This document shows, piece after piece, positions 12,932 through 64,000 of a DNA stretch of 64,000 nucleotides (the first letter of the stretch is position 1; every line of letters starts with the position of its first letter). The stretch lies in assembly GCA_050303855.1 (NCBI GenBank), contig JBNLCO010000010.1, positions 124,093 to 188,092 on the forward strand. Direction: 5' to 3'. The notes under the pieces are model-generated. The model had not been told where the DNA came from. It made no database searches and was given only the letters and a program-made list of their open reading frames with translations. This DNA comes from Candidatus Pacearchaeota archaeon (lineage in GTDB: Archaea; Nanobdellota; Nanobdellia; Pacearchaeales; GW2011-AR1). A program made the position numbers and the translations under genes.

Positions 12932-12936
12932 TTAAA

Positions 12937-14290: not shown

Positions 14291-14291
14291 A

Positions 14292-15158: not shown

Positions 15159-15159
15159 A

Positions 15160-15522: not shown

Positions 15523-15523
15523 A

Positions 15524-15742: not shown

Positions 15743-15743
15743 A

Positions 15744-16244: not shown

Positions 16245-16266
16245 CACTCTTTCTTAATTCTATACT

Positions 16267-17661: not shown

Positions 17662-17662
17662 G

Positions 17663-18376: not shown

Positions 18377-18389
18377 ACCATTCAAAACC

Positions 18390-18398
18390 CTTAAAAAT
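18390..18398 (+). promoter_or_regulatory. TATA-like box (CTTAAAAAT) about 25 nt upstream of the ATG at 18419
   Basis: Spacing and composition as at the other operon-leading genes. Confidence 0.45.
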
Positions 18399-18418
18399 GC
18401 TTTTTATCTGGATTATTC

Positions 18419-18820
18419 ATGGCTAAAAGTGAGAAATCAGAACAAGAACTTATGATGAAGTTTAGTATGTTTGAACAGCAAATAAGACTAATTCAAGATC
18501 AACTTCAGGCAGTTGAACAGAAAATACTAGAATTGAAAGATATAGAATTAGGCCTTGAAGAATTAATCGGTAAAGCGAACTCAGAAATCTATGCTCCAGT
18601 TGGAAGCGGAATATATGTTAAAGCAAAATTGGAATCAGAAGAGTTATTAGTTAATGTTGGAGGGAGAAACCTTATTTCAAAAGATATTCCTGAAACAAGA
18701 AAGATTTTACAAGAACAAATAAAGAAATTAGAGGGAATAAGAGGGGACTTGAATAAAGAAATGGATAAAATCAATGACGAAGTAACTAAGGTTTTTATGG
18801 AACACAAAGAAAATAACTAA
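18419..18820 (+). CDS. pfdA: prefoldin alpha subunit
   Basis: 133 aa. Two coiled-coil arms flank the beta-hairpin region ...IYAPVGSGIYVKAKLESEELLVNVGGRNLISKD... Confidence 0.8.
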   Translation: MAKSEKSEQELMMKFSMFEQQIRLIQDQLQAVEQKILELKDIELGLEELIGKANSEIYAPVGSGIYVKAKLESEELLVNVGGRNLISKDIPETRKILQEQIKKLEGIRGDLNKEMDKINDEVTKVFMEHKENN

Positions 18821-18823
18821 TAA

Positions 18824-50542: not shown

Positions 50543-51432
50543 CTTGAACCTCCGTGTTTTTTATGGAAGTACCACTTAAGTATTGAAACATTGGTGATCC
50601 AAGTGTTTATCATATCAAAGAATAATCCTATTACAAGGATTGTGAAAATTTGAGTTAAAATTTCTGAGAAAGATGAGGCAACAAACAGAGCTATTGCCAT
50701 AGCAAAAAATGAAGTTAAAGTCATAGTCATACCGGTCTTAAAAGCCCCAGATATTCTTTCGTTTAGAGAGCCTTCGTGACGTTTCAATACTCTGTTTGTA
50801 AGAAGGATATCCGTATCCACAGAATAACCAATAAGCATAAGCAAAGCAATTATTCCTGCGCTAGACATCTTTATTCCAAAGAGATTTATTGCAACAAGGG
50901 TTAACAGGATATCTGCAAAAGCAGAAATTATAACTGCTCCTGAAGGAATTAGATCTTTGAAAATTATGAAAACAACTATTGCCATAAATAAGAATGCTAC
51001 AAGAACTGCAATTATCAATTGCTTATAGAAACTTTCACCAAAAGAAGATCCTGTTGAAATTATGTCTGAATTCTCTCCAGATATTAATTCGTAACCCAAG
51101 AATGTCTCTAATTCGGCTTTAGCTGTGTCAACATCTGAAGTAGTTTCTATTGTGAGGGCTATTTGCTCTTGAGTTAGAAGATCAGAGATTTCTCTTACTG
51201 CGAGATTATCCAATTTTGGTTCTAGAGCTAAGGTTAATTCGGAAGCGGATATTTTATCATAAACAGTTATTGAAGTTCCCCCTGTAAGGGAGATATCTTT
51301 CTCAAAGAATGCTCCGTGGTTTGAATTATAAACTCCAAGATAAACTAGTGAAAATAGGATTAAAACTGCAGGGATAATTAGCAAATATTTGTAAGATTTA
51401 TCATGCCAGTGTTTTTTTGTTGATTCTTCCAT
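50539..51432 (-). CDS. secF: protein-export membrane protein SecF
   Basis: 297 aa, ...LLMLIGYSVDTDILLTNRVLK...; 4-nt overlap with secD. Confidence 0.8.
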   Translation of the reverse strand: MEESTKKHWHDKSYKYLLIIPAVLILFSLVYLGVYNSNHGAFFEKDISLTGGTSITVYDKISASELTLALEPKLDNLAVREISDLLTQEQIALTIETTSDVDTAKAELETFLGYELISGENSDIISTGSSFGESFYKQLIIAVLVAFLFMAIVVFIIFKDLIPSGAVIISAFADILLTLVAINLFGIKMSSAGIIALLMLIGYSVDTDILLTNRVLKRHEGSLNERISGAFKTGMTMTLTSFFAMAIALFVASSFSEILTQIFTILVIGLFFDMINTWITNVSILKWYFHKKHGGSR

Positions 51433-51443
51433 TTGAAATTCTA

Positions 51444-51531
51444 TGCGCGGACCGGGGATCGAACCCGGATCAACTGGTCTCTTCAGACAACCTGTGGAAG
51501 CCAGTTATTCTAACCATTAAACTATCCACGC
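51444..51531 (-). tRNA. tRNA-Gly(UCC) with a 16-nt intron at the canonical 37/38 position
   Basis: Manual fold. Acceptor GCGTGGA/TCCGCGC plus discriminator A73; D arm GTTT-AATGGTTA-GAAT; anticodon stem ACTGG/CCAGT; loop CTTCCA|intron CAGGTTGTCTGAAGAG|A; T arm CCGGG-TTCGATC-CCCGG. No encoded CCA. Confidence 0.85.
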
Positions 51532-51891
51532 CTATTTATCTATATTGTGGGTGTGTTTTAAAGGTTTTTGCTTTTCCCAATGTAATTTTCTATGGCAGTT
51601 GGCACAAAGCACTTTGCATTTTTTAATCTCATGAAGTATCCTCTTAATTGAATATCCTTCGGAAACCATCTTGGCAACTTCCATTTCTTTATCATCCCTT
51701 TGGTGATGAAAATCTATTGTGGCGGGATGGTTTTCTTTGCAAATTGTGCAACCCAAACTATCCTTATAGTTGCGAAACCAGGATTTTATTTCTTTTTTCC
51801 TTCTTGCCACGTGCTTTATCTCTGATTCCTTATTTTTGCTGTACCAATTTTTCCGATACTCCAATCTTTTTTTACGGTCTTTGAAGGGCAT
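51532..51891 (-). CDS. HNH endonuclease-domain protein (119 aa)
   Basis: Contains ...GCTICKENHPATIDFHHQRDD...VLCANCHRKLH... (Cys-box plus HNH signature). Its stop codon directly abuts the tRNA-Gly 5' end. Confidence 0.7.
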   Translation of the reverse strand: MPFKDRKKRLEYRKNWYSKNKESEIKHVARRKKEIKSWFRNYKDSLGCTICKENHPATIDFHHQRDDKEMEVAKMVSEGYSIKRILHEIKKCKVLCANCHRKLHWEKQKPLKHTHNIDK

Positions 51892-51944
51892 ATAAATTTC
51901 AGGATTTAAACCATTATAAAAGGTTGTAACCTCTTAAGAATAAA

Positions 51945-52020
51945 ACGCCCGAGACAGGATTTGAACCTGCGACCTATTCCTTAGGAGGGAATCGCTCTAA
52001 TCCAGGCTGAGCTACCCGGG
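51945..52020 (-). tRNA. tRNA-Arg(CCU)
   Basis: Manual fold: GCCCGGG-TA-GCTC-AGCCTGGATTA-GAGC-G-ATTCC-CTCCTAA-GGAAT-AGGTC-GCAGG-TTCAAAT-CCTGT-CTCGGGC-G. Confidence 0.88.
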
Positions 52021-52104
52021 CAATTGTTCTCAGAACAAGAAAAGGAGATTTAAATGTTATGCAAGGAACTAAATCTTTAATAATAAGGCTTTAGATGCGA
52101 AATA

Positions 52105-52920
52105 ATGGTTACAAAGAACATCATATCTGACTATGAAATTGAAAAAGGTAGGAAAGTTCTTGAAAACCACCTTGTTTACCCTTTAACAAAAGAAGGAGCA
52201 TTTGAATCAGGATTGTGGTGCATAAGCAGTCAGGCAACACCTTGGGAAATGGCCTCCAACATAATCTATAAACTTAGGGAAAATTCTTATCCAGGAGACC
52301 CTCATGCAAAAAAGAAGATTTCTCGGATGGAAACTCTTAAGGATGTAGGAGAAGTTAACAAGTCTGCTAAAGAAGCGGGATGGAGGTTTGCAAAGGGAAA
52401 TAGATTCAACGATTTTATTAATTATTTCTCAAAAGAGGAAATATCTTCAAAGGACTGGCACTATGAAGTTAGAGATGCCAATAATGAATATAGAAAACAA
52501 ATTGTGAAGGATGTTGGGTGGCTAGGCTTGAAGACTTTCTCATTTTGGAACATCTGTTTGGGAGGAAAAGATTTTCTTGCATTAGATGTATGGATTCTAA
52601 AAGATCTTAAGAAATTAGGTTTAGATATAAAAGAGGAATATGTTGTAGCTCAGAGTAGGAATGTGGGAAAACAAAAAGTAAGGAAGACCCCTAGGGAAAA
52701 AGAATATTGTAAGGTAGAAAACGAAGCAAGAGAATTATTTTCTAAAGATAAAAGATTCCTACAAGAAGATGGAAAGGTCGACCTTGCTTTAGTAGATAGT
52801 GTTTTATGGTGGAGAGGTGCAAACAGAGGTACTTTGTATCAGCAGTCTCTTTTTGAAGAAGAAGTACTTTTAGAAATGCCTTATCAAAATATGCGGAGAA
52901 CAGGATTCGAACCTGCGTAG
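52105..52920 (+). CDS. HhH-GPD-superfamily DNA glycosylase candidate (Ogg2-type 8-oxoguanine glycosylase/AP-lyase-like)
   Basis: The pattern parallels archaeal Ogg as I recall it: ...GLWCISSQATPWE..., ...VGWLGLKTFSFWNICLGGKDFLALDVWILKDL... (HhH with Lys, then Asp), ...LALVDSVLWW... The last 29 nt overlap tRNA-Leu on the opposite strand. Confidence 0.45.
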   Translation: MVTKNIISDYEIEKGRKVLENHLVYPLTKEGAFESGLWCISSQATPWEMASNIIYKLRENSYPGDPHAKKKISRMETLKDVGEVNKSAKEAGWRFAKGNRFNDFINYFSKEEISSKDWHYEVRDANNEYRKQIVKDVGWLGLKTFSFWNICLGGKDFLALDVWILKDLKKLGLDIKEEYVVAQSRNVGKQKVRKTPREKEYCKVENEARELFSKDKRFLQEDGKVDLALVDSVLWWRGANRGTLYQQSLFEEEVLLEMPYQNMRRTGFEPA

Positions 52921-52975
52921 GCACTAAGCCATAAGAGCCTTAATCTTACCCATTTGACCACTCTGGCATCTCCGC
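52892..52975 (-). tRNA. type-II tRNA-Leu with an apparent anticodon AAG
   Basis: Manual fold: GCGGAGA-TG-CCA-GAGTGGTCAAA-TGG-G-TAAGA-TTAAGGC-TCTTA-(variable arm TGGCTTAGTGCCTAC)-GCAGG-TTCGAAT-CCTGT-TCTCCGC-A73. Confidence 0.75.
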
Positions 52976-53044
52976 ATAAGCACAGAAAAACAAACTTCAG
53001 ACCCTATAAAAAAGTTTGGAATGTGGTCTGTAAAGACATAAATG

Positions 53045-53053
53045 TTTTTAAAA
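53045..53053 (+). promoter_or_regulatory. TATA-like box (TTTTTAAAA) about 26 nt upstream of the ATG at 53075
   Basis: The track ATG at 53042 sits just upstream of and abutting this box, so the downstream Met is the more likely start. Confidence 0.4.
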
Positions 53054-53074
53054 TTGGGAGGGTTTGATAAAACC

Positions 53075-53230
53075 ATGACAGATGAATTAGTTCTTAAAAT
53101 GGCGGTTATTGCAGGTGCGTCAAACGCTCTTAAGTTAAAAGAGAAGAATCCTAGTTGGAATGATGATAAAATATTCCAGAAGATCAACGATCAAATTCTT
53201 GAGATTTTAAGCAAACTCGATAGAGAATAA
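53075..53230 (+). CDS. small hypothetical protein (51 aa from the ATG at 53075)
   Basis: MTDELVLKMAVIAGASNALKLKEKNPSWNDDKIFQKINDQILEILSKLDRE; helical and short. No family recognised. Confidence 0.4.
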   Translation: MTDELVLKMAVIAGASNALKLKEKNPSWNDDKIFQKINDQILEILSKLDRE

Positions 53231-53263
53231 AAAGGTTTAAATAGCCCTTATTTCTTGAAAAAT

Positions 53264-53379
53264 TAAGACGGCCATAGTAGCGATGGTTCCACCTGGTCTC
53301 TTTCCGAACCCAGAAGTTAAGCATCCTACGTTGTTACCGGTACTGTCCTGCAAGATGGGAAAGTAACAAGCTGTCCTAC
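53264..53379 (+). rRNA. rrf: 5S rRNA (ends approximate to within about 4 nt)
   Basis: GACGGCCATAGTAGCGATGGTTCCACCTGGTCTCTTTCCGAACCCAGAAGTTAAGCATCC...GGGAAAGTAACAAGCTGTCC. It has the conserved CCGAAC..GAAGTTAAGC loop region, and the terminal helix GACGGC/GCTGTC pairs. Confidence 0.88.
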
Positions 53380-54119
53380 TTTTTTTTATAGAATTTATTT
53401 AATATTTGAACATATTCTTTATTTATTCCTTCTAACCTAAAAATGACTACTTTCTTGAACCCAGATTTTTTTACAAAGTTCAGATCTTTTTCTAAATTCT
53501 CTGGAGAGAGGATTGGTTCGTTTCCAAGAATCCCTATCGCAATTGTCCCGAGAGATATAGAATGGTTCTCTTTATTTCTCAGCCCCATTAAATTAGATTT
53601 AACCCTTTTATTAAAAGCTCTTGGAAACATACTTGAATACCACATTATGCTCCGCTCATAATTGAGATTATAATTTAACCCAATTAACTTCATAAATTTT
53701 GAAACAAATGCGAAGGGATATTCTGCGGTAGTTACTCTTTCCTTGTTGTTCTTCAAGAATTCTAGGATAAGCTTTTTGTTTTTCTTAAAGTGAAAAATAT
53801 TTCTAAAGTACATCTTCCATTTATTTCTTAGAGGCAGCTCCAGATCAATAAGAAGATGATTTTTTATGGAATTTAATTCATGGAATAATTCCTTAAGATC
53901 TTCTGTGTTGGAAAATGGAGAAATCCAATAAGAATTTTTTACAATAGGCCAATATGCTACTTCAAGATCTTTTTTGTAAGACTTAGCTATCTTTTCGTAT
54001 TTTTGGAATTCATTAATTGATTTAGAAGCAATAAATATTTTTGTTGGATATTTTATTAATTTTAGTTTAGAAAGATTTTCTTCATTTGGAAATTCTTCAT
54101 AAAATTCTATCTCCATCAA
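53376..54119 (-). CDS. hypothetical protein (247 aa), no family recognised
   Basis: Clean ORF, MMEIEFYEEFPNEENLSKLKLIKYPTKIFIASKS... Its stop codon overlaps the 5S 3' end on the opposite strand. Confidence 0.55.
   Translation of the reverse strand: MMEIEFYEEFPNEENLSKLKLIKYPTKIFIASKSINEFQKYEKIAKSYKKDLEVAYWPIVKNSYWISPFSNTEDLKELFHELNSIKNHLLIDLELPLRNKWKMYFRNIFHFKKNKKLILEFLKNNKERVTTAEYPFAFVSKFMKLIGLNYNLNYERSIMWYSSMFPRAFNKRVKSNLMGLRNKENHSISLGTIAIGILGNEPILSPENLEKDLNFVKKSGFKKVVIFRLEGINKEYVQILNKFYKKK
53380..53387 (+). terminator. oligo-T tract (T8) immediately after the 5S rRNA
   Basis: Archaeal RNAP terminates on T-runs, and the tract follows the 5S 3' helix directly. Confidence 0.6.
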
Positions 54120-54146
54120 TTAATATAAATAAAGAAGCTCTTAAAA

Positions 54147-54347
54147 TTAACTCTTCTTGAACTTAGAAATAATTTCAATTGTATCTGTTTGACCTAAGAA
54201 GATTGATCTGCAACACATTCTTTCAAGACCTAATTCATCTAGAACTTTTTTTGGGTTCTCACTATTTTCTTGTGTTCTCTTTTTGAACTCTTCCCACAAG
54301 TGACCAAGAGGCTTTCCACAACTCATACATCTTACTGGAACTATCAT
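54147..54347 (-). CDS. rpoN: DNA-directed RNA polymerase subunit N (Rpo10)
   Basis: MIVPVRCMSCGKPLGHLWEEF...LGLERMCCRSIFLGQTD... Confidence 0.92.
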   Translation of the reverse strand: MIVPVRCMSCGKPLGHLWEEFKKRTQENSENPKKVLDELGLERMCCRSIFLGQTDTIEIISKFKKS

Positions 54348-54465
54348 GATATTAAAGACAATTGGCTATTTTTAAAGCTTTTGATGTAAGAAATATTCTG
54401 ATTTATACAAATCTTTAAAAAGAAATTTTCTCTAAGAATTTGATTAATCAAAAAAAGGTGTGCTA

Positions 54466-54663
54466 ATGTCAAAAAAGTGTATTTATTGTAAATCTGAGAT
54501 ACCTGATGAATCCGTAATAGATTTCTGCAATAGGTGTGGAGTTAGTGTCTGGGGAGAAAAGATGTTTGAAGCGATAGTTAAGAATATGGAAGATGCGAGA
54601 GATAACGACGATCTCTGCAGAACAAATATGAACCCGGATCAGATTGGAGAAACTCCAAGATAA
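54466..54663 (+). CDS. small zinc-ribbon protein (65 aa from the ATG at 54466)
   Basis: MSKKCIYCKSEIPDESVIDFCNRCGVSVWGEKMFE... has a CxxC...CxxC pattern. GGTG lies upstream of the ATG. Confidence 0.55.
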   Translation: MSKKCIYCKSEIPDESVIDFCNRCGVSVWGEKMFEAIVKNMEDARDNDDLCRTNMNPDQIGETPR

Positions 54664-54676
54664 AACAAAAGGATAG

Positions 54677-54686
54677 TTTTTTAAAG
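54677..54686 (+). promoter_or_regulatory. TATA-like box (TTTTTTAAAG) about 26 nt upstream of the eL21 ATG
   Basis: Same geometry as the other promoters in the window. Confidence 0.5.
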
Positions 54687-54706
54687 AGAATATTTCTGGA
54701 TATTTT

Positions 54707-54961
54707 ATGGCAAACAAGAAACCAATAAGGACAAGAGGAAAAATAAGCCTTAGTAGATACTTTAGAAGATATAATGATGGAGATAGAGTATCTATTGTTG
54801 AAGAAAGATCTGTTCCAAAGAATTTTCCTGGGAGATTACAAGGTAGGACAGGGATAGTGGAAGGAAAACAAGGAAGGTCTTATAGGGTGAAATTGAAGGA
54901 TCAGAACAAGGAAAAAGTATATCTTGTGCAATCAGCACATTTAAAAAAAATAAAAAACTAA
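54707..54961 (+). CDS. rpl21e: 50S ribosomal protein eL21
   Basis: MANKKPIRTRGKISLSRYFRRYNDGDRVSIVEERSVPKNFPGRLQGRTGIVEGKQGRSYRV... Confidence 0.9.
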   Translation: MANKKPIRTRGKISLSRYFRRYNDGDRVSIVEERSVPKNFPGRLQGRTGIVEGKQGRSYRVKLKDQNKEKVYLVQSAHLKKIKN

Positions 54962-54968
54962 TTATAAA

Positions 54969-55274
54969 ATGATAAAAAGCTCACAACAACTAAGTACGCC
55001 AGAAGCAATGGAATATGTAGATGGTAAAAGCGAACAAGGTGCAAAAGTACTAGCTTTTGCTAAGAAGTTTGGAGCAATAAACCCAAAGAAAGCTAATGAA
55101 ATGAGAGAGAAACTATTGGAAGTTAACTCTATAAAAATAAATGAGGGGCATATAGCTAAGATAATTGAGTTTATGCCTGAGAATTCTGAAGAAGTGAATA
55201 AGATATTCACTGAATTAAGTTTGGAAGAAGATGAAAAGAATAAAATACTTGACATCGTCAACCAGTTCAAATAA
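54969..55274 (+). CDS. rpoF: DNA-directed RNA polymerase subunit F (Rpo4/Rpb4-like)
   Basis: 101 aa helical protein in the conserved eL21-RpoF-DUF655 position; ...EVNSIKINEGHIAKIIEFMPENSEEVNKIF... Confidence 0.7.
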   Translation: MIKSSQQLSTPEAMEYVDGKSEQGAKVLAFAKKFGAINPKKANEMREKLLEVNSIKINEGHIAKIIEFMPENSEEVNKIFTELSLEEDEKNKILDIVNQFK

Positions 55275-55311
55275 AGGGACCAAAATCTTATATCAAGAGC
55301 GAGGAAATTAA

Positions 55312-55851
55312 ATGGCAAAAGAAGAAAAAGCAATAATTTTAGAATATTTACCTAACGGATATCCCCTATCAAAGAAGATGTTGCCAGTTGCACAGGCAAT
55401 AGGGGAGAATAACTTGACACTTTTAGAGCTTGTTCCAAGAAAAGGCGTTGGCTTAGAACTGGGAGAGGAAGTTTACATTGGAGAAGGTAAAAGAGATAAA
55501 ATATACTATATTTTGGGCAGATTACATAGAGAAAAGCTTACAGAAACTGCTAAGAATCAATTAGAAGAATTTATAAAGGGTGTTGTCAAGAAAAGAGAGA
55601 AGGAATTTGTAGAATTCTTCAATAAGGCAGATGCCATAAACAAAAGAATTCATCAGATTGAACTTCTTCCTGGTATGGGAAAAAAACATATGCAGGAGAT
55701 ATTAAAGCAAAGAAAGGAAAAGGATTTTGAGTCCTTTGACGACATGAAGGCGAGAGTACCTAACCTCCCTGACCCTGAAAAAGCCGTCGAAAAGAGAATT
55801 TTTCAGGAGTTAACGAATTTGGAAAGGTACAACTTGTTTACAGGAAACTAA
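55312..55851 (+). CDS. DUF655-family protein (putative nucleotide-binding, HhH-containing)
   Basis: MAKEEKAIILEYLPNGYP...LLELVPRKGV...IHQIELLPGMGKKHMQEILKQR... Confidence 0.8.
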   Translation: MAKEEKAIILEYLPNGYPLSKKMLPVAQAIGENNLTLLELVPRKGVGLELGEEVYIGEGKRDKIYYILGRLHREKLTETAKNQLEEFIKGVVKKREKEFVEFFNKADAINKRIHQIELLPGMGKKHMQEILKQRKEKDFESFDDMKARVPNLPDPEKAVEKRIFQELTNLERYNLFTGN

Positions 55852-55852
55852 G

Positions 55853-56320
55853 ATGGAAAAACCAATACAACAGAAAGACTCCGAAAGAATAGTAAGAATT
55901 TTATCTAAAGATATAGAAGGAAATACAACAGTTTATTCTGGATTAACTCAAATAAAGGGTGTTTCATGGAGTTTTTCAAATGCAGTTTGTAGAATTCTTG
56001 GAATCGACAAAAAAAAGAAAATTGGATCACTTACTTCTGAAGAAGTGAAAAAAATTGAAGATTTTATAAAAAATCCGCAATTACCTGAATATTTGTTGAA
56101 TAGAAGAAAGGATCTCGAAACAGGAAATGATAAGCATTTGCAAGGAACAGATTTGGAATTAAGAAAAGACTTTGATGTTAAGAGATTAAAACAAATAAGA
56201 AGCTACAGAGGTTTAAGACACACTCTTGGGTTACCTATGAGAGGTCAAAGAACAAAAGCTAATTTCAGAAGAAATAGGAAGAAAGGTTCAGGAATTAAAA
56301 AAAAGAACGTAAAGAAGTAA
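55853..56320 (+). CDS. rps13: 30S ribosomal protein uS13
   Basis: Contains ...IVRILSKDIEGNTTVYSGLTQIKGVSWSFSNAVC...RSYRGLRHTLGLPMRGQRTK... Confidence 0.93.
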   Translation: MEKPIQQKDSERIVRILSKDIEGNTTVYSGLTQIKGVSWSFSNAVCRILGIDKKKKIGSLTSEEVKKIEDFIKNPQLPEYLLNRRKDLETGNDKHLQGTDLELRKDFDVKRLKQIRSYRGLRHTLGLPMRGQRTKANFRRNRKKGSGIKKKNVKK

Positions 56321-56321
56321 A

Positions 56322-56831
56322 ATGAAAAGAAAACATAAGATATATTCGAGACCAAAGAGACCTTTTGATAAGAAAAGGATAGAAGAAGAAGGAAAAATCA
56401 AAGAAGAGTTTGGTTTAAAGAATAAGAGAGAAATCTGGAGAGCAGAAGCAAAAATAAAGGTTATAAGAGAAAGGGCTAAGAAACTTGTTTCAGCAAAAGA
56501 TGAAGAGAAGAAAGCGTTCTTTGATAAATTGAATAAACAAGGTTTCAAAGTAACTTCTATTGCAGAGGTTCTTTCATTAACAAAAGAAGATTATCTTAAT
56601 AGAAGATTGCAAACAATTGTTTTTAAGAAAGAGTTAGCAAAGACTCCAAAAGAAGCAAGACAGTTAATAACTCATAAGAAAGTTATTATTGGGGATAGCA
56701 TAGTTAATATTCCCTCTTATTTGGTTTCTATTGAAGAAGAAGGTAAACTGAAAGTTAAAGAAAAGAAGGTTAAGGCTAAGCCGGTAGAAGCTTCAAAAGA
56801 AGAACCAGAGGAGGAAGATAAATCAGAATAA
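56322..56831 (+). CDS. rps4: 30S ribosomal protein uS4 with an acidic C-terminal tail
   Basis: MKRKHKIYSRPKRPFDKKRIEEE...; S4 domain ...RLQTIVFKKELAKTPKEARQLITHKKVIIG... Confidence 0.93.
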   Translation: MKRKHKIYSRPKRPFDKKRIEEEGKIKEEFGLKNKREIWRAEAKIKVIRERAKKLVSAKDEEKKAFFDKLNKQGFKVTSIAEVLSLTKEDYLNRRLQTIVFKKELAKTPKEARQLITHKKVIIGDSIVNIPSYLVSIEEEGKLKVKEKKVKAKPVEASKEEPEEEDKSE

Positions 56832-56832
56832 A

Positions 56833-57315
56833 ATGGCAAAAGAAATAGAAGAAAAAAAAGAAGAAATTGTTGAAGATAATAAGGAAGAGGCTTCGAAAGA
56901 AGAAGTTAAAGAAAAGACTGAAGTTAAGAAAAAAAAGGAGAAGGAAATAGAAGCTGTTGTTAACATTTATACTTCATTCAATAACACAATAGTTCATGTT
57001 ACAGATATGTCTGGGAGGACTCTTGCAAAAGTTTCTGGAGGAATGGTCACAAAGCATTCTAGACTTAAGGCAAACCCTACAATTGCGATGTTTATAGCTA
57101 AAAGAATTGCAGAAAATATGAAAGAAAAAGGAGTCAAATCTCTTTATATTAAAATAAGAGCTAAGACTGGAAATCCAACTCCGGGTCCTGGAGCTAATGC
57201 TATCGTTAAGAGTCTTACAAAGGAAGGTTTTAGAATATTAAATATCTTAGATGTTACACGTGTTCCAAGAGGAGGTCCAAAGAAGAAAGGTGGAAGACGT
57301 GGTAGAAGGCCGTAG
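56833..57315 (+). CDS. rps11: 30S ribosomal protein uS11 with a K/E-rich N-terminal extension of about 40 aa
   Basis: Core ...VNIYTSFNNTIVHVTDMSGRTLAKVSGG..., preceded by MAKEIEEKKEEIVEDNKEEASKEEVKEKTEVKKKKEKE. Confidence 0.93.
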   Translation: MAKEIEEKKEEIVEDNKEEASKEEVKEKTEVKKKKEKEIEAVVNIYTSFNNTIVHVTDMSGRTLAKVSGGMVTKHSRLKANPTIAMFIAKRIAENMKEKGVKSLYIKIRAKTGNPTPGPGANAIVKSLTKEGFRILNILDVTRVPRGGPKKKGGRRGRRP

Positions 57316-57324
57316 ACCCCTTAA

Positions 57325-57334
57325 ATTTAAAAAA
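57325..57334 (+). promoter_or_regulatory. TATA-like box (ATTTAAAAAA) about 25 nt upstream of the rpoD ATG
   Basis: Same geometry as the other promoters in the window. Confidence 0.45.
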
Positions 57335-57354
57335 CCCCAAAATAACCTAATAAT

Positions 57355-58059
57355 ATGGAAAAAATAAACGAAACAAAGGATAAGCTTGTATTTAAGGCAG
57401 AAGTTGATGAGAGCTTAGCTAACGCCGTTAGAAGGTATGTTCACCAGATACCTGTGGTTGCTGTCGATAGTGTAGAAATCTCAAGAAACGATTCTCCTTT
57501 GTATGATGAAACCGTTGCTCATAGAATTGGATTAATCCCTTTGAAACAAAATAAAAAAGAAGGAACAATGAAATTAAAGGTGAGTAAAGAAGGATTTGCT
57601 TATTCCGGAGAATTTGAAGGAGACATTAGTGTAGTTTATGATGGAATACCAATAACTTTGTTGAATAAAGGACAAGAAATTGATTTAACTGCTACTGCAA
57701 AGACTGGAAAGGGTGCAGACCATTCTAAATTCTCTCCTGGATTATTTTATTACAGAAAAGTGTTAGAGCTATCTATGGAGAAAGATGTTGCAGACAGATT
57801 AAAAAGAATGTATCCAGAAATAGAAATTAAGACAAAAGGTAATAAAGCGGTAGTTATTGATGATCAAGAAAGAGAAGTTTATGATTTTTGTGAGGGAGTT
57901 AGTGAAAAGGAAGGAAAGGAAGTTGAAGTTAAACCAATGAAAGAGTTGGTTGTTACAATTGAATCATTTGGCCAGATCCCTGCTAAAGATATTTTTACTA
58001 AATCATTAGATGTTTTGAAAAAAGATTTAGAAGATTTTGCAAAAAAAATAGCAAAATAA
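57355..58059 (+). CDS. rpoD: DNA-directed RNA polymerase subunit D (Rpo3)
   Basis: Contains ...LANAVRRYVHQIPVVAVDSVEISRNDSPLYDETVAHRIGLIPLK... Confidence 0.9.
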   Translation: MEKINETKDKLVFKAEVDESLANAVRRYVHQIPVVAVDSVEISRNDSPLYDETVAHRIGLIPLKQNKKEGTMKLKVSKEGFAYSGEFEGDISVVYDGIPITLLNKGQEIDLTATAKTGKGADHSKFSPGLFYYRKVLELSMEKDVADRLKRMYPEIEIKTKGNKAVVIDDQEREVYDFCEGVSEKEGKEVEVKPMKELVVTIESFGQIPAKDIFTKSLDVLKKDLEDFAKKIAK

Positions 58060-58064
58060 TTTTT
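58060..58064 (+). terminator. oligo-T tract (T5) directly after the rpoD stop
   Basis: TAA followed by TTTTT; end of the plus-strand cluster. Confidence 0.35.
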
Positions 58065-58223
58065 CTAAAAAATAAAATATAATTTTGGATTTTTGTGACA
58101 AGAAATTTGTCTTTGGAAGTAATAATTTAATGAAATAGGGTATTTCGGGTAGGCTTATTTTTGGAAATTTTGCAAAAAAAATATCCCAAAACCAAATTAA
58201 TGATTCGGGGATATTTTGTGAAT

Positions 58224-58508
58224 TTAATGTAACGAATGATAAAGCTTCTGCGGGGGCAAAAGAATTTTAAAGAAATCACCGGAATTAAGGAAGTATAAAT
58301 AGAATTCAAATGAATCCCCTCCTTTATTTAAATAGAGGACCCAGCAATAATTTTCTTCCCAAATTAGCTTCGCTTTATTTCTTAATTCTCCCCAGCTAGG
58401 ACTAGTTTTTGTAAGCGACCAGTCATTTGTTTGAATTACTCCGAATATCGAATTAGGAGAATTTTCTTTATTGAAAGCTTCTTTTACAATTTCTAAATCA
58501 TTTTTCAT
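58224..58508 (-). CDS. hypothetical protein (94 aa)
   Basis: The ORF follows the upstream lipoprotein gene by 17 nt. No family recognised. The C-terminal third is low-complexity and may be read-through. Confidence 0.4.
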   Translation of the reverse strand: MKNDLEIVKEAFNKENSPNSIFGVIQTNDWSLTKTSPSWGELRNKAKLIWEENYCWVLYLNKGGDSFEFYLYFLNSGDFFKILLPPQKLYHSLH

Positions 58509-58525
58509 ACCATTTTATTTTAAGG

Positions 58526-59092
58526 TTAAGCAAAATAATTAATTGAGATGAAATTAAGAGGGTGGAATTCGCCTTGTTCTTTTTCAGATTTTATTTTCTC
58601 ATGAGACCTCCAAACCTTTCCATCTTGTCCAATCAATATGGCCTTATCGCCAGCGTAAACAATGTACTTGGGTCTTGGATCTACCTGATAAACATAATCC
58701 TCTTCGGCACTGTAATTATCACAGAAATCTTCATAATCTTCTATCTTTAATGACCGCCCGCTCTTAAATATAACTCTAACAGAGAGAGGGTTTTCTTTTA
58801 GGATAGGTTTCAGATCATCATATTTCCAAAATTCTTTGAATGGGACAAAACGAACAACTTTGACTAAAGAATCTTCTCCTTTAATCGAATATCCTTCCGT
58901 GTTTATTAGTTTGGATTCCTTTTTCTTCAGGAATCCTTTTTCTTCAACAAATTTTGCGGCGTCAGTCACAAAATCTTCAAGCGTTGCCTCTTTTGGAGGT
59001 TTTACTATTTTCTCCTGAGTTTTAGGAGATTTTTTATTGCAACCAGAAATAAAAAGTGCAATAATTACTAAAATAACGATACGTGTTTTCAT
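58526..59092 (-). CDS. putative lipoprotein (188 aa)
   Basis: N-terminus MKTRIVILVIIALFISGCNKK has a signal peptide plus a lipobox-like L-F-I-S-G-C. Confidence 0.6.
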   Translation of the reverse strand: MKTRIVILVIIALFISGCNKKSPKTQEKIVKPPKEATLEDFVTDAAKFVEEKGFLKKKESKLINTEGYSIKGEDSLVKVVRFVPFKEFWKYDDLKPILKENPLSVRVIFKSGRSLKIEDYEDFCDNYSAEEDYVYQVDPRPKYIVYAGDKAILIGQDGKVWRSHEKIKSEKEQGEFHPLNFISINYFA

Positions 59093-59118
59093 AATTATAA
59101 ATTTAATTTGGATAATTT

Positions 59119-59460
59119 TTAAAACAAAAGACTAAAATAATTATCAATTTCATTATCAGATACGGCCTCTTCAAAATTCTCTATATTTTTTACAGCAAGT
59201 TTTAATTTATTAAAACAATCTTCTGTAATGATCAAAAAAGGCGATTCTTTATAAGGGACCTTAATAGTGATGATGTAATCTTGATTTCTTAGAAGAGGAA
59301 TAATCTTCTTATAATGCTTATAGAATTCATCGGAATCTGACATGAAACCAAGCGCAATGAGCTCTTGAATTGCTTCTATAGTTAAACGTGTTATCCCGGG
59401 CTCTTTTAAAGTCTTTATAACATCTTTATTGTTCATCTTTTTATCAATTATATTAAACAA
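59119..59460 (-). CDS. hypothetical protein (113 aa), cytoplasmic-looking
   Basis: Clean ORF; no signal peptide; no family recognised. Confidence 0.5.
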   Translation of the reverse strand: MFNIIDKKMNNKDVIKTLKEPGITRLTIEAIQELIALGFMSDSDEFYKHYKKIIPLLRNQDYIITIKVPYKESPFLIITEDCFNKLKLAVKNIENFEEAVSDNEIDNYFSLLF

Positions 59461-59533
59461 AAAGAAAAGGCATAAGCTATTGCTCTTTGCCTTTTCTAAG
59501 TTAGAGATTGGTATAGAAGAAATTAATAGGAGA

Positions 59534-60397
59534 TTAATTTGTATTAGTTTGGGTTGTTGATGGATTGCTTAATACTTCAAACCTTTCTTTAATCATTGTT
59601 ATGGAAAGCTTCTTGTGGGTATTGGAGGCGTATCCCATATTAACAACAACCAAATATTGTCCTGGTTCAAGTTCCAGCCCGATATTTTTGCCTTGTACAA
59701 ACTTTTCAAAACGATTATTGTAACCGTTACCTCTTATCTGAAAAGTTTCAACTTTCAAGACCTTTCCAGTTGAAGCGTCATATATTTTTGCATTAATACA
59801 AGGTATATCTTTTGATAACATTTTAATATAAAATGCAAAGTTTATTTCTTCTCCTTGAACGAATGATCTTTTCTTGCCTTGGAATTCATCTATTTGAGCA
59901 AGACCATCTCTGTTAAAATCAGAATACCAATTGTACATGAAAATATTGCCCAAAGTGGCATAATCCTTTACTCCAAAAGTATTTGAGGGTATGTATGCAA
60001 AGTTTACTAACTCATTTTGAGTATACTCTGGAAGAGTATGGGAGACAGAAACGGGGGTGTGTATAACGTTAAAGTCGCCTGGATCTTCGTTTGCCCAGGT
60101 GTATCCTTCATCAGGGTACACTCTCCTAGTGCCATCAACTTCTAAAACATGAGTATTTGGATAGTTATGCGTTACATTTATGTTTTGGGTGGAAGTATTT
60201 GAAGCGGTAGTAATCTCCATAGTGTATTCCATTTCACCAGATGTTGTAAGAGCCTTTCCCAATACACGGGAAAATTTATTTGCACCATTTTCTACTAAAA
60301 ACTCTCCAGCAATAATTTTCGCCTGAGTTTTAACTGATTGCGCACTTGTACCTAGTACAAGTAGAACCATTACTGAAATAAAAACTAATTTTTTCAT
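59534..60397 (-). CDS. secreted hypothetical protein (287 aa)
   Basis: N-terminal signal peptide MKKLVFISVMVLLVLGTSAQS; Thr/Asn-rich mature protein; no family recognised. Confidence 0.6.
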   Translation of the reverse strand: MKKLVFISVMVLLVLGTSAQSVKTQAKIIAGEFLVENGANKFSRVLGKALTTSGEMEYTMEITTASNTSTQNINVTHNYPNTHVLEVDGTRRVYPDEGYTWANEDPGDFNVIHTPVSVSHTLPEYTQNELVNFAYIPSNTFGVKDYATLGNIFMYNWYSDFNRDGLAQIDEFQGKKRSFVQGEEINFAFYIKMLSKDIPCINAKIYDASTGKVLKVETFQIRGNGYNNRFEKFVQGKNIGLELEPGQYLVVVNMGYASNTHKKLSITMIKERFEVLSNPSTTQTNTN

Positions 60398-60439
60398 CTT
60401 ATTTAATTTTTGTTAATAAATGTTATTTTTAATAAAAAA

Positions 60440-60459
60440 GAAACCTCCAGAGAGGTTTC
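60440..60459 (-). terminator. perfect 8-bp stem / 4-nt loop hairpin followed by T6 on the minus strand (intrinsic-terminator-like)
   Basis: The minus strand reads GAAACCTC-TCTG-GAGGTTTC-TTTTTTATT, starting 19 nt after the stop of the 60479-61207 gene. Confidence 0.6.
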
Positions 60460-60478
60460 ATAAAAATTGCTTAAGAAA

Positions 60479-61207
60479 TTATTCTTTCTTAACAAAAATT
60501 CGAGAATAATTATTTATTCCAAGAAGCAATTGGTTTGAACAAATATAAACCAAATTTGTGACTATTTGACATCTAAAAGCCCCGTTTATGGAATTAGAGG
60601 GGTGCATTAAACTGATCTTATGATCTCCGTTTCCTTGTGTGGGCACCCCATATTCATCAATATCTCCATAATAACGCCACTTAGCTGAATAATCCTCAGA
60701 CCAAATAGATCTTTCTGTAAGATCGAATAACCCTTCCTTAGTTAATTCTAATCCCGGAAGATCAATTTTAAGAGGAATTTTTAATTTTCCAAAAGAATCA
60801 ATCTCTCCAAGAGATTTTTTGAATGATTTGAACTGGTTGATCAAATGGGTTGCATCTCCCTTATTTATACTCACTCCGTTAAGATAAATCCCTGCTTCAA
60901 CCAAGTGTTTTCCAAAGAATATTTTTTGGTTATTGTAACATTGATATGTTGTCAAAGGATTGTTTTTCAGACCTTCAGTATTTACCCACATATCATAAAG
61001 AACAATGAACTTTGGGTTAGCACGAATAATATCTACTTTTCCGGTTGAATAAACAATATCTTTTGTCATTAATTCGAAAACTTCTTTTCTAAGAAAAGAT
61101 CTTCCGAACCTGAGAACTTCTTTGAATATTTCAACATCTGAAAGCATTTCTCCATTCACTTTTAAACTTAATTCATGGAAAGGGTTTGATCTTAAAATAT
61201 TTTCCAT
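60479..61207 (-). CDS. hypothetical protein (242 aa)
   Basis: Clean ORF; no signal peptide; no family recognised. Confidence 0.55.
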   Translation of the reverse strand: MENILRSNPFHELSLKVNGEMLSDVEIFKEVLRFGRSFLRKEVFELMTKDIVYSTGKVDIIRANPKFIVLYDMWVNTEGLKNNPLTTYQCYNNQKIFFGKHLVEAGIYLNGVSINKGDATHLINQFKSFKKSLGEIDSFGKLKIPLKIDLPGLELTKEGLFDLTERSIWSEDYSAKWRYYGDIDEYGVPTQGNGDHKISLMHPSNSINGAFRCQIVTNLVYICSNQLLLGINNYSRIFVKKE

Positions 61208-61230
61208 AATTGTTGTTTTACATTATACAT

Positions 61231-61350
61231 TATTTTTTCTTCTTGTTGAAACCTTTCTTCCTATTATATTCCAACCTTCTTTTTATCTTCTCTGGATTTA
61301 CCTCAGAAGAATCAATAAAATCTTCTTGCAAAAATAGATTGTTTTTCATA
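61231..61350 (-). CDS. possible 39-aa basic micro-ORF (MKNNLFLQEDFIDSSEVNPEKIKRRLEYNRKKGFNKKKK)
   Basis: Found by manual reading of the 163-nt gap between two minus-strand genes. It is below the track cutoff and has no other support. Confidence 0.2.
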
Positions 61351-61370
61351 AGAACTAATTTAAATTATAA

Positions 61371-62561
61371 CTACTCTTTAATCCCTGTTATCCGGATTTT
61401 ACGGAGGTGTAGATATTCATTCTTTTCTTTTAGGAATTTATCATATTTTGCCACCACTCCTATCTTTATTATCCCTTCACTTTGATTAATTGACTTATTA
61501 AATTTTGTTAGATAATCTAAAGGGTCTTCCCAATTAAAGTCAGGGATTGGAGAAGAATAAATATCAAAAAGAAGGAAAATGTTTCCAAGACTATCTTGTC
61601 CAAATATTTCCAAATGACCTCCCTTTTTATTCCCCGCATCAAAAGATAGTTTTGTAATTGCATAACCTGACTCTGAGAACAAATCATCAAACCAAATAGT
61701 GTCCTTACACCCATATAATTTAAAGGGCCCTTCAATTTTGGAAGTCTCTTTTGGGATAAAGGTTGTATCTCCAGGGGCGAAAACAAATACAGAATCATAA
61801 ATCACAAGAGTATCTTTACTTGAAATGAAAACGCTGTCTATGCTATACACTGTGTCTTTCTGGTAAATGTAAATATACTCTATATTATAAATTGTATCAA
61901 GTTCAAAAGTAAAAATTGAATCTATACTAAAAACCGTATCTTTTTTATAGATAATAACAGAATCTATACTAAAAATAGTGTCAAAGAAATTATTTACAAC
62001 AAATACTGTATCTAACTTCGATATTATAAGTGTGTCCACATTGGAAATTATTTCTCTTATAGTATCATAAAAGAAATAAATTTTTGTCTGAACAATTGTG
62101 TCTTTTTCCACAATCCAATTAATTTTTCCACAAACTGTATCTTGAAGCAATAAAACATCTTCTTCATAAAACAAATAAATGTGGCACAAATCATTAAGGG
62201 CAACTGCCTCAAAATGAAAGTCGGGTTTTGTAACTTGGCTTGAATCGCCTTTTGGACCTTGAGGACCCCTATCTCCATTACAAGTAGTGTCTCTATATAT
62301 GAACCTGTCAACACCTTCATTATAGGTGGCATCTTCATCAAGGTTTTGATAAAGTGTTCTCACCCGGCACAATTCATCTATCTTTTTTGATTCAGAAAGA
62401 ATTGGGGGCCACTCTGGAGATCCGATATAGATTGTATCCACCCTGCCTTCTGGAGAGTTTATAGTTACATCAATAGAAACATTTGTTTCTTCCAAATAAT
62501 CTTCACAAGAGATAATTGTAAAGATTGTAATCACTATTACTAAATAGATTAAATTTCTCAT
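61371..62561 (-). CDS. putative surface lipoprotein (396 aa) with a short collagen-like tract and more than 10 degenerate D-T-[IVL]-[FYV] beta-repeat units
   Basis: N-terminus MRNLIYLVIVITIFTIISCEDYLEETN (lipobox Cys followed by acidic residues). GDRGPQGPKGDS at aa 96-107. Repeats such as KDTVFSIDS / FDTIFSIDS / KDTVYSIDS between aa 140 and 270. Confidence 0.65.
   Translation of the reverse strand: MRNLIYLVIVITIFTIISCEDYLEETNVSIDVTINSPEGRVDTIYIGSPEWPPILSESKKIDELCRVRTLYQNLDEDATYNEGVDRFIYRDTTCNGDRGPQGPKGDSSQVTKPDFHFEAVALNDLCHIYLFYEEDVLLLQDTVCGKINWIVEKDTIVQTKIYFFYDTIREIISNVDTLIISKLDTVFVVNNFFDTIFSIDSVIIYKKDTVFSIDSIFTFELDTIYNIEYIYIYQKDTVYSIDSVFISSKDTLVIYDSVFVFAPGDTTFIPKETSKIEGPFKLYGCKDTIWFDDLFSESGYAITKLSFDAGNKKGGHLEIFGQDSLGNIFLLFDIYSSPIPDFNWEDPLDYLTKFNKSINQSEGIIKIGVVAKYDKFLKEKNEYLHLRKIRITGIKE
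61752..62144 (-). repeat. degenerate intragenic tandem repeats (10-15 codon period) inside the 396-aa lipoprotein gene
   Basis: At the DNA level, for example GAATCTATACTAAAAACCGTATC and GAATCTATACTAAAAATAGTGTC lie about 45 nt apart on the + strand (61915-62000). At the protein level the motif x-D-T-[IVL]-[FYV]-S-I-D-S recurs. Confidence 0.6.
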
Positions 62562-62588
62562 AAATTTAAAGATTTAAAGGGTTATTAG

Positions 62589-63479
62589 TTAAAATTTTAT
62601 TTTTAAGCCTGCACCATATTGAGAGGTTTCTAATTCAAAAGAATTCAACAATTTGTATTGGTTTTTTATTTCTCTGAATTTTCTTCCAAATATTCCATCC
62701 AAAAGAATTATGCCGCCTGCTGTTATTAAAACTGGCTTAAAGGGGTTCATCGTTTCCTTATAGGATTCAATTTTAGTCGAAACTTCAACACCATCCAAGT
62801 TTAAGTTAATGTCTTGGTTCGTTCTTTTAATTCTATCAGGTAGAAAAAACCCTCCAATAATTAAACCTGATCCAAGAGCGGTTTCGTAGTTTAGAAAATC
62901 ATTAAATTTCCATTTCAAAGTTTCTTCAAGAGACAAGAGGGATTTTTTTGAGAGTAAATTACAAGGATATTCAAAATAATGGTACATTGAATCAATATCT
63001 CCTTTATAGTCTAAAAGAATTAATGTATCTTTTCTAGAATATTCTTCAATAACAATATACGAATCTTTTGGGCATTCTTTTTTATCAGTTTTTCCCAATT
63101 CAATAGAAGGTTCACTGTTATTACTCTCATTTCTGGAGGAATCAATCGTCACACCTTTATTTGCAGAAAAGGTTGAATTCTTCTTATGCGATCCAACCTT
63201 GGATCTGGAAGGTTTTCTATTAGTTTGTCCTTTAATTTTAGGACATGTGCAGCAACAAGTGTCTACTTTTTCTTCTAGTTTCCTTAATTTATCTGAAAGG
63301 ATAATCATTTCATCAGTTAAAGTATTCAAATTTAATTTATTTCTGAGTACTTCACTTTCGAGTGGAGATATACTTCCATTGGAGGAGCTTTTATCTTTCC
63401 AAAAAGTTCCGTACGCTACAAAACAAAGTATCGCAAAAAGCAATACAGTGTTTATGTGAGAATTTTTGATTGTTTTCAT
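62589..63479 (-). CDS. membrane-anchored hypothetical protein (296 aa) ending in ...GAGLKIKF
   Basis: N-terminal TM/signal anchor (INTVLLFAILCFVAYGTF), a coiled-coil segment, a Cys cluster DTCCCTCPK, a basic Ser-rich linker, and a C-terminal domain ending in Phe. Confidence 0.6.
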   Translation of the reverse strand: MKTIKNSHINTVLLFAILCFVAYGTFWKDKSSSNGSISPLESEVLRNKLNLNTLTDEMIILSDKLRKLEEKVDTCCCTCPKIKGQTNRKPSRSKVGSHKKNSTFSANKGVTIDSSRNESNNSEPSIELGKTDKKECPKDSYIVIEEYSRKDTLILLDYKGDIDSMYHYFEYPCNLLSKKSLLSLEETLKWKFNDFLNYETALGSGLIIGGFFLPDRIKRTNQDINLNLDGVEVSTKIESYKETMNPFKPVLITAGGIILLDGIFGRKFREIKNQYKLLNSFELETSQYGAGLKIKF

Positions 63480-63824
63480 TTTTAAAATTTTAAAGTTTTA
63501 AACTATTTTCAGATTATTTCTTGAACAAGAGGACAAATTAATATAACCTGATATTAAATTTTGGTTATTATTTTTCTTTGAATCCTTTCTTGAGAGATTT
63601 TCGATTCTAAATAAAATGATCTTTTTTCTCATTTTTCTACTATTTTTTGAGGATTGTTTTTTAAATAAACTAAAATATTATCAAACTCATGGAAGGCTCA
63701 ATACCGATATCTGGATCATCTGGAAAGTTATCTCCATAGTTATAATAGATGTCGTATTGATCCTCCTCAAAAAAATATTTTAAATTCATAATTTTATCTC
63801 CTATTTTTAATTATATCTTTTAAA

Positions 63825-64000
63825 ATTAAATTCTCTCGGCTCTTATGAACATGTCTCGGTAGGCATGTTTTTGGTTTCTAAATAGATTCCTCCAAGAACT
63901 TCTTCTCAAGATTATCTTTGCCAAAGTTTTAGACACGGCTATTGGATTCCAAAGCAAAGGAATCTCGGGAGATCTATAAATCTCTGTTTGAATTATTTTA
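63825..64000 (-). CDS. 3' end of an ORF entering from beyond the window (...IYRSPEIPLLWNPIAVSKTLAKIILRRSSWRNLFRNQKHAYRDMFIRAERI*)
   Basis: Manual minus-strand translation. It is open to the window edge with a stop at 63827-63825. No family recognised. Confidence 0.3.

Follow-up and report, generated by a model that had tools for sequence, protein, structure and literature searches.

What lies beyond rpoD, the gene for RNA polymerase subunit D, when an archaeal operon stops there and every gene that follows runs on the opposite strand and resembles nothing in the family databases? This question is raised by a 64,000-nucleotide stretch from a Candidatus Pacearchaeota archaeon (contig JBNLCO010000010.1, positions 124,093 to 188,092), hereafter the window, in which seven open reading frames (ORFs), I1 to I7, form a minus-strand island downstream of rpoD. 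A first-pass annotation made from the sequence alone had reported that the rpoD cluster stops at 58059 with everything thereafter on the minus strand, which is borne out in that the ORFs at 58224-63479 all lie on that strand. It had read the island as an abrupt break with features of Gram-negative bacteria, and had offered three explanations: a surface-protein island of an episymbiotic archaeon, acquisition from a bacterium, or a chimeric assembly. We favor the first of these, given the same-site islands in the clade, the native composition and the homologues in archaeal context, and consider it quite probable that the region is a variable island of cell-surface genes, native to this low-GC Woesearchaeota/Pacearchaeota-type DPANN archaeon and typical of its lineage. 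Two Logan contigs (SRR36185838) align to the window with 100% identity, the first over 49189-58271 and the second over 58502-64000 and a further 4.8 kb past the window, leaving unbridged 230 nucleotides (58272-58501) that fall wholly inside the I1 ORF. The features on which the argument turns are as follows.

57355 to 58059, plus strand: rpoD (RNA polymerase subunit D), the last operon gene; its identical counterpart in the Logan contig matches Pfam RNA_pol_L and RNA_pol_A_bac.
58033 to 58047, plus strand: first copy of a boundary motif, ATTTTGCAAAAAAA, inside the 3' end of rpoD (from direct repeat D7 and the motif scan).
58166 to 58180, plus strand: a second copy of the boundary motif that is conserved in the clade, AATTTTGCAAAAAAA(ATAT), with GGGTATTTCGG ahead of it.
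58174 to 58217, minus strand: terminator-like hairpin with U8, starting 6 nucleotides past the I1 stop, between convergent units.
58224 to 58508, minus strand: I1, a 94-residue ORF from the ORF list without signal peptide, of uncertain gene status, spanning the Logan gap at 58272-58501.
58526 to 59092, minus strand: I2, 188 residues, predicted Sec lipoprotein with lipobox ISGC at Cys18.
59119 to 59460, minus strand: I3, a small protein without signal peptide, 113 residues from TTG or 105 residues from the ATG at 59436.
59534 to 60397, minus strand: I4, a 287-residue secreted protein with signal peptide ...LGTSAQ/S and a conserved N-terminal domain.
60434 to 60459, minus strand: perfect 8-bp hairpin with T6, terminator-like, in the interval that separates the I5 stop from the I4 start.
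60479 to 61207, minus strand: I5, 242 residues, without signal peptide or detectable relatives.
61371 to 62561, minus strand: I6, 396 residues, predicted lipoprotein with lipobox IISC at Cys19.
62589 to 63479, minus strand: I7, 296 residues, bearing a membrane anchor at its N-terminus as well as coiled-coil, CC-rich and low-complexity linker segments and a beta-rich C-terminal domain.
63670 to 63789, minus strand: a 39-residue ORF called in the Logan contig, of uncertain status.
63826 to 64000, minus strand: 3' end of a class I S-adenosylmethionine-dependent methyltransferase gene that continues past the window (coordinates mapped from the Logan contig).

The window has a G+C content of about 33% and carries archaeal ribosomal-protein and RNA-polymerase genes (L21e, Rpb4, RpoN, S13, S4, S11 and RpoD). 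For comparison we used the 80 best genomic matches to the window uS11, which come from metagenome-assembled genomes (MAGs) labeled Woesearchaeota, Pacearchaeota, Nanoarchaeota or "archaeon", with two mislabeled "bacterium", and which place the organism among the DPANN archaea of this group. The operon order L21e-Rpb4-DUF655-S13-S4-S11-RpoD ends at rpoD in all 79 related loci that carry rpoD, indicating that the premise of an anomalous stop was wrong for this lineage. Likewise, rpoN lies upstream of this operon and on the opposite strand in 58 of the 58 related loci where it was found, so that its separate position at 54147, which had been counted as a second anomaly, is the lineage norm. The genes eL18, uL13 and uS9, which the first pass had missed after rpoD, are absent from the whole window according to tblastn, which found no match to any of them there.

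Sixty-three relatives have at least 1.5 kb of sequence downstream of rpoD, and we typed these loci by what follows the operon. About 37 have eL18-uL13-uS9 and seven have SecD/SecF, while in 18 rpoD is followed by minus-strand, mostly genome-specific ORFs in the same layout as in the window (break-type loci). The first-pass question of whether sister genomes have eL18-uL13-uS9 after rpoD is answered positively for roughly 37 of the 63 relatives but not for the window's own clade, from all typed members of which this arrangement directly after rpoD is absent. In a neighbor-joining tree of five concatenated proteins, the 18 break-type loci fall into two coherent groups with one outlier (L036), and the window is placed as sister to L021, then to L005, L040, L055, L006, L032, L024, L010 and L080. 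The gene content at these sites was compared with that of other relatives and of upstream regions, with the following results.

Downstream of rpoD, break-type relatives: signal-peptide-like starts in 72 of 213 (34%); 19 lipobox lipoproteins.
Downstream of rpoD, other relatives: signal-peptide-like starts in 30 of 506; no lipobox lipoproteins.
Upstream housekeeping regions: signal-peptide-like starts in 6-8%; one or two lipobox lipoproteins.

The island therefore occupies a fixed site between conserved flanks, its content differs among relatives, and it is enriched in exported proteins.

The boundary itself carries a signature of the clade. An exact 17-nucleotide repeat, ATTTTGCAAAAAAAATA, occurs at the 3' end of rpoD and again 133 nucleotides downstream. 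The motif that it contains, AATTTTGCAAAAAAA(ATAT), closely follows rpoD, on the plus strand, in L055 and in 12 of the 18 break-type loci, and the window has two copies of it; the loci that carry it are L005, L006, L007, L010, L014, L016, L019, L021, L022, L040, L054, L055 and L069, and elsewhere the motif scan found it only rarely and scattered. As a side observation, the motif takes the form (G)AAATTTTGCAAAAAAAATAT with the palindromic core TTTTGCAAAA, always on the rpoD strand, often in two copies and sometimes with GGGTATTTCGG before it. A second element, the perfect palindrome ATATGAAAATATTTTCATAT, lies between the motif and the hairpin/T-run, about 30-70 nucleotides past the rpoD-proximal motif, and is confined to the sub-clade of L005, L006, L010 and L040.

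Past the motif, the minus-strand sequence 58217-58178 is predicted to fold at -17.1 kcal/mol (z = -3.5), and only 1 of 200 shuffles folds equally well. A-run/hairpin/T-run structures follow the rpoD motif in at least nine relatives. The conservation of the motif together with these structures indicates that the rpoD flank is built as a place where convergent transcription units meet. The second hairpin, with arms GAAACCTC-(4 nt)-GAGGTTTC at 60440-60459 followed by T6 on the minus strand (-10.8 kcal/mol, z = -4.0), is the sole intergenic perfect hairpin with a T-run within the 64-kb window. It had been taken as a bacterial hallmark; the hairpin is indeed there, but comparable elements occur in relatives' islands and it is thus not a foreign signature. 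Both structures are like bacterial intrinsic (Rho-independent) terminators in that stable hairpins followed by T6-T8 stand at unit ends (60434-60459 and 58174-58217). They are unlike them in that the A-run/hairpin/T-run after rpoD is common to related archaea, which makes it a lineage trait rather than a bacterial import. Archaeal RNA polymerase terminates at oligo-T and is not known to need a hairpin. Terminator-like matches overall are not clearly enriched in the sequence, with 15 observed and 10.8 ± 2.5 in shuffles.

We also asked how far the island departs from the rest of the window in composition. Its tetranucleotide distance of 0.0218 lies inside the 0.0134-0.0326 spread of other window chunks, its distance in relative synonymous codon usage is 0.261, a value at least as high being seen in 21% of gene blocks of equal size, and its third-position G+C content is 0.263 versus 0.259 in the rest of the window. 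By all of these measures the island is like its surroundings, and the break in character that had been perceived after rpoD did not hold up. The reported lack of Shine-Dalgarno motifs is true of the island (0 of 7 genes) but does not discriminate, as only 14 of 60 other window genes have one and 0 of 7 would be expected about 16% of the time. The first 58 kb encodes almost solely cytoplasmic housekeeping genes with hardly any exported proteins, and consequently offers no fair internal standard for archaeal signal-peptide style.

Searches of Pfam and NCBIfam with all seven island proteins gave zero family matches, in keeping with their earlier description as unrecognizable. We called signal peptides and lipoboxes by a simple home-made rule, not by SignalP, and by this rule four of the seven ORFs encode export-type proteins. 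The N-termini of I2 (MKTRIVILVIIALFISGC) and I6 (MRNLIYLVIVITIFTIISCEDYLEE) both fit a lipobox: by this heuristic the best 10-residue hydropathy is 3.9 in I2 and 3.2 in I6, K/R but no D/E residues precede it, and a lipobox of the form [LVI][ASTVI][GAS]C closes the hydrophobic core as I-S-G-C18 in I2 and I-I-S-C19 in I6. The two lipobox lipoproteins, the signal peptide ending GTSAQS (in I4) and the protein ending GAGLKIKF (the C-terminus of I7), all listed in the first pass, are thus present. From these features the region is predicted to encode exported proteins, namely the lipoproteins I2 and I6, the secreted I4 and the anchored coiled-coil protein I7, together with three small proteins, I1, I3 and I5, that appear to lack export signals. 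Within I2, a 17-nucleotide tandem duplication (GGAATCCTTTTTCTTCA twice, 58913-58946) yields on the antisense (plus) strand a perfect hairpin with a T-run, which is probably incidental.

I6 is the island protein whose layout is most suggestive. According to sequence and model, it would comprise Cys-bracketed modules with a collagen-like GxxGxxG stretch, then repeats, then a C-terminal beta-sandwich domain. Residues 141-265 form about ten DT-x-hydrophobic repeat units, the number of which varies among homologues. The AlphaFold2 model of I6 has an overall predicted local distance difference test (pLDDT) score of 40, and only residues ~295-396, which are all-beta, reach 63-79; this C-terminal domain has only weak matches to jelly-roll or carbohydrate-binding-module-like (CBM-like) folds, and a Foldseek comparison of the model with the PDB gave nothing at E <= 1e-3. 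The corresponding model of I7 (pLDDT 34) is uninformative.

Homologues of several island proteins were found outside the window. When 1.84 billion representatives were searched exhaustively with HMMER, 14 matches to I6 came up, two of them at 44-47% identity. The I6 family members P0131, P0132, P0137 and P0142 all have the lipobox, and the C19 column is invariant; two distant, domain-level matches (P0136 and P0144) lie in uninformative contexts and were set aside. Relatives of I4 are P0002 (52% identity over 39% of the query) and a truncated gene in the locus L088 (42% over 85 residues), and the signal peptides of both end in ..AQS or ..GQS, as in I4. L088 also encodes a homologue of I7 with 34% identity that ends ...GIGLKINF, so that the pattern G-x-G-L-K-I-x-F is kept. 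This locus, a 4.8-kb JGI contig of 27% G+C, carries I7-like and I6-like genes, three small ORFs and an I4-like gene in the window's order, and the recurrence of the order I7-I6-...-I4 identifies it as a conserved module. Two scans of metagenome contigs (JGI collection) with the I6 and I4 family alignments found zero relatives.

The I6 relative P0142 is encoded in L086, a 35-kb ENA contig of 33% G+C, inside a 15-kb run of co-oriented genes whose exported products almost all lack a Pfam match. This run (4164-19301) abuts a tRNA gene and archaeal eL18-uL13-uS9 (1-2460) on the other strand, with the tRNA in the place of rpoD. From its gene order, L086 suggests that an ancestral rpoD/eL18 junction came apart, leaving a surface-gene island on either side.

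For I2, a word-indexed protein search gave zero homologues. Its mature part has a weak match (31% over 74 residues) to a lipobox lipoprotein encoded 7 kb downstream of a vault gene in GCA_018653105.1. On the far flank of the island, the Logan contig (L001) links I2-I7 to the methyltransferase and to an 867-residue homologue of the eukaryotic major vault protein (L001:1365-3968; Pfam Vault_3 and MVP_shoulder) that lies about 2.8 kb past the right end of the window and on the minus strand in window orientation. The best relative of this vault homologue (51% identity) is in the same "archaeon" MAG, GCA_018653105.1, within more than 22 kb of co-oriented genes nearly all without Pfam matches. A second archaeon thus has a vault gene followed by an I2-like lipoprotein gene, with order and strand as in the window's contig but with different genes in between. 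More than 170 further vault homologues come mostly from unnamed metagenomic contigs, the few named ones being from Riflebacteria and Ozemobacteraceae. At its far end, the Logan contig encodes a protein (L001:2-1231) with internal repeats of about 60 residues (...FCKVLIPKM.D.SEILEILSEI...), which are probably why the contig stops there. The suspicion by eye that I2 belongs to a lipoprotein cluster of the relatives (C11) was rejected, as a hidden Markov model gave signal-peptide similarity only (6 bits).

Several points weigh against a native surface-gene island. Comparison of the island proteins with the 80 related loci by tblastn and phmmer found zero homologues, so that by sequence the correspondence among the islands is one of the same kind of gene at the same site and not of orthology. 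The neighbor-joining tree carries no support values, the taxonomy of L088 is unassigned, the export calls are those of the home-made rule, and the structure models of I6 and I7 are poor. The role in adhesion or host interaction is one that we infer. Finally, and as the one serious weakness, given the Logan break at 58272-58501, the continuity of rpoD with the island rests on one NCBI contig and on comparative arguments. The tested window proteins are all on this single 268,280-bp contig and are singletons at 90% identity, indicating that the organism has been sampled once. The Logan break may stem from low coverage, from a mis-join or from differences between strains at the edge of the island.

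A rival explanation is that the island was acquired horizontally, its donor being a bacterium of Gram-negative, Bacteroidota-like type that was a host or neighbor, for instance. The signal peptides and lipoboxes do have a Bacteroidota-like look, with a superficial likeness to SusD-type lipoproteins in the MKK... signal peptides ending AQ/SQ and in a Cys followed by acidic or aromatic residues. However, many N-termini from the relatives' islands are equally "Bacteroidota-like", for example ..LFSSCSKE and ..FFVSSCEYDDNF, and the look therefore belongs to the archaeal clade; moreover, having lipobox lipoproteins is a trait of archaea and of DPANN (PMC12462473). The start of mature I6, CEDYLEE, had been compared with a SusD-like C-x-D-[FY]-L-[DE] pattern, but the "C-E-D-Y-L-E" start is not kept in the I6 family, where the relatives begin CEEYEDD, CEKEEIL, CEEIEHF and CTKEYVI. 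No SusD/RagB domain was detected in I6 by Pfam at E <= 1 or by NCBIfam, and the 58-64 kb region, together with the following 4.8 kb, contains neither a SusC-type TonB-dependent receptor domain nor an ORF of more than 400 residues. More generally, the window proteins gave no match to a SusD or outer-membrane family even at permissive thresholds.

The second strand of this explanation concerns beta-barrels. I7 resembles bacterial outer-membrane beta-barrels in its alternating hydrophobic C-terminal strand ending in Phe, and the terminal Phe is kept in the L088 homologue. The first-pass suggestion of a beta-signal stands at the level of this motif, but no barrel domain was detected: I7 and its C-terminal 98 residues have no match in Pfam at E <= 10, and hhalign of I7 with the relatives' outer-membrane-protein-like (OMP-like) proteins gave a probability of 0.2%. 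On these two negatives, the candidacy of I7 as an outer-membrane barrel was rejected. In the relatives' islands, many secreted proteins end in G-hydrophobic-x-hydrophobic-x-[FLW], as in ..SAGMVFSL, ..GGFSLKINLF and ..SSGIKYNF, and 5 of 10 tested secreted proteins give sub-threshold but consistent matches to Pfam OMP_b-brl (PF13505; E 2.7e-5 to 1.6e-2), the best at 24.9 bits versus a cutoff of 28.7. OMP-like strand endings are found in the following.

L024:13772-14560
L032:16588-17361
L040:5385-6158
L054:12803-13438
L007:14393-14953
and further in L005:9668-10486
L007:17128-17718
L088:263-721

Comparison of these OMP-like proteins with PDB sequences and NCBIfam gave no support, and the sequence-based beta-barrel signal in the relatives' islands is weak. 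Thus, the likeness to SusD lipoproteins and outer-membrane barrels stops short of any SusD, SusC or barrel domain, the family start is unconserved and the context is archaeal. With zero bacterial homologues of I2, I4 and I6 in searches of billions of proteins, a native composition, and the supposed hallmarks widespread in related archaeal loci, we judge bacterial acquisition to be quite unlikely; any such transfer may have been ancient and fully ameliorated.

A chimeric assembly, in which the NCBI contig would fuse the archaeal flank of rpoD, somewhere after that gene, with DNA from a different organism or strain, is very unlikely in our estimation. Three observations could be read in its favor: both Logan contigs stop inside I1 (at 58271 and 58502), the I1 product has no exact record as a called gene, and strand and gene character switch at the end of rpoD. 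However, the zone in which the join had been suspected, 58060-58223, holds the clade-conserved archaeal motif and the terminator hairpin, which contradicts a join there, and the same layout of rpoD and a convergent island occurs in 18 independently assembled relatives. An intact 94-codon ORF crosses the Logan gap and stops 6 nucleotides short of the conserved terminator, the island's composition and codon usage are indistinguishable from those of the rest of the window, and the closest relative of the far flank is an archaeal MAG. Strain heterogeneity at the edge of a variable island would be expected to break the de Bruijn graph equally well. A chimeric join within 58272-58501 is accordingly unlikely.

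That a mobile element or provirus has integrated at the 3' end of rpoD is highly improbable: the 17-nucleotide repeat and the fixed site with variable content would fit one, but the repeat is a clade-conserved intergenic motif and not an att pair flanking the island, no integrase, transposase or capsid-like protein is encoded in the island or the 4.8 kb beyond, the I6 and I4 families have no relatives in 2.9 million viral contigs, and the composition is native.

Returning to a native surface-gene island, the locus might work as follows. The operon ending S13-S4-S11-rpoD would be closed by the conserved motif and a hairpin/T-tract terminator, against which the genome-variable, convergent minus-strand genes abut. 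These genes would be transcribed as two blocks, I7-I6-I5 and I4-I3-I2-I1, with a hairpin/T-tract after each. The lipobox cysteines of the exported products could be lipidated via the archaeal AliA-type pathway, and I7, I6 and I4 could then assemble at the cell surface, where I6 would expose a stalk of repeats together with a CBM-like beta-sandwich that may bind a host or substrate surface. The fast gene turnover at the site would be a result of selection acting on the surface of cells that depend on a host. A membrane-anchored surface assembly for attachment may be the most economical reading of the module, and it fits the rapid diversification of surface proteins in Nanoarchaeota (PMC6142677).

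Two published systems provide points of comparison. Lipobox lipoproteins are prevalent in DPANN archaea, in which the AliA lipidation enzyme occurs (Hong et al. 2025, PMC12462473). I2 and I6 are like AliA/AliB-lipidated archaeal lipoproteins in having a positive n-region, a hydrophobic core and a lipobox (ISG/C and IIS/C), and their Sec-type signals are as reported for non-halophilic archaea; they differ in that their mature domains are unrelated to characterized lipoproteins and that their lipidation is predicted from sequence. In Nanoarchaeota, the proteins with the fastest diversification are hypothetical ones of the cell surface (Jarett et al. 2018, PMC6142677). The island is like these variable surface genes in being an exported, relative-poor cluster in a small-genome DPANN archaeon, with content that differs between related genomes, conserved flanking core genes and a native composition. 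It is unlike them in that the variability here is between species-level MAGs and is seen at one fixed site marked by a motif and terminator, the 3' flank of rpoD.

This flank would thus be a motif-marked locus of surface-gene turnover in an archaeal clade that is uncultured and presumably depends on hosts, and the I7-I6-...-I4 module is a candidate for attachment studies. The case also provides a guard against mis-calls in DPANN MAGs, since bacterial-looking ORFans beside core genes can be a lineage trait and not contamination or transfer. To our knowledge, beta-barrel proteins of outer-membrane type are unexpected in archaea, and the barrel signals in the relatives' islands, if real, would bear on the type of archaeal envelope or on the hosts touched. 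A bolder proposal is that this DPANN clade keeps beside rpoD a changing array of diderm-type envelope proteins, made up of lipobox lipoproteins and OMP-like secreted proteins. We regard this as unlikely; if it were true, it would imply either an outer-membrane-like layer or the export of effectors, barrels and lipoproteins alike, that become inserted in the outer membranes of Gram-negative bacterial hosts, and the I7-I6-I4 module would be one such cassette.

With respect to expression signals, a scan for sigma-70 promoters found 75 sites versus 75.3 in shuffled sequence, which is no excess. An apparent promoter contrast, with TTTAAAAA-type boxes in the archaeal part and AT-rich, TATA-like sequences at -17 to -35 in the island, was indistinguishable from the AT-rich background and was not used. 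A TTTAAAAA/TTTATAA box does stand about 22-32 nucleotides before the ATG of some 16 first-in-unit genes that are without a Shine-Dalgarno motif, for example those at 18419, 19753, 20650, 36082, 38311, 54147 and 57355, and a box without Shine-Dalgarno is the pattern of an archaeal TATA promoter with leaderless mRNA. GGAG-type motifs are found chiefly ahead of internal operon genes.

The RNA genes of the window are a lone 5S rRNA gene and three tRNA genes. The stand-alone 5S rRNA gene (53264-53379, plus strand) abuts the start of a minus-strand ORF (53376-54119). An 88-nucleotide tRNA gene (51444-51531, minus strand), to which ARAGORN assigns no anticodon, may contain an intron.

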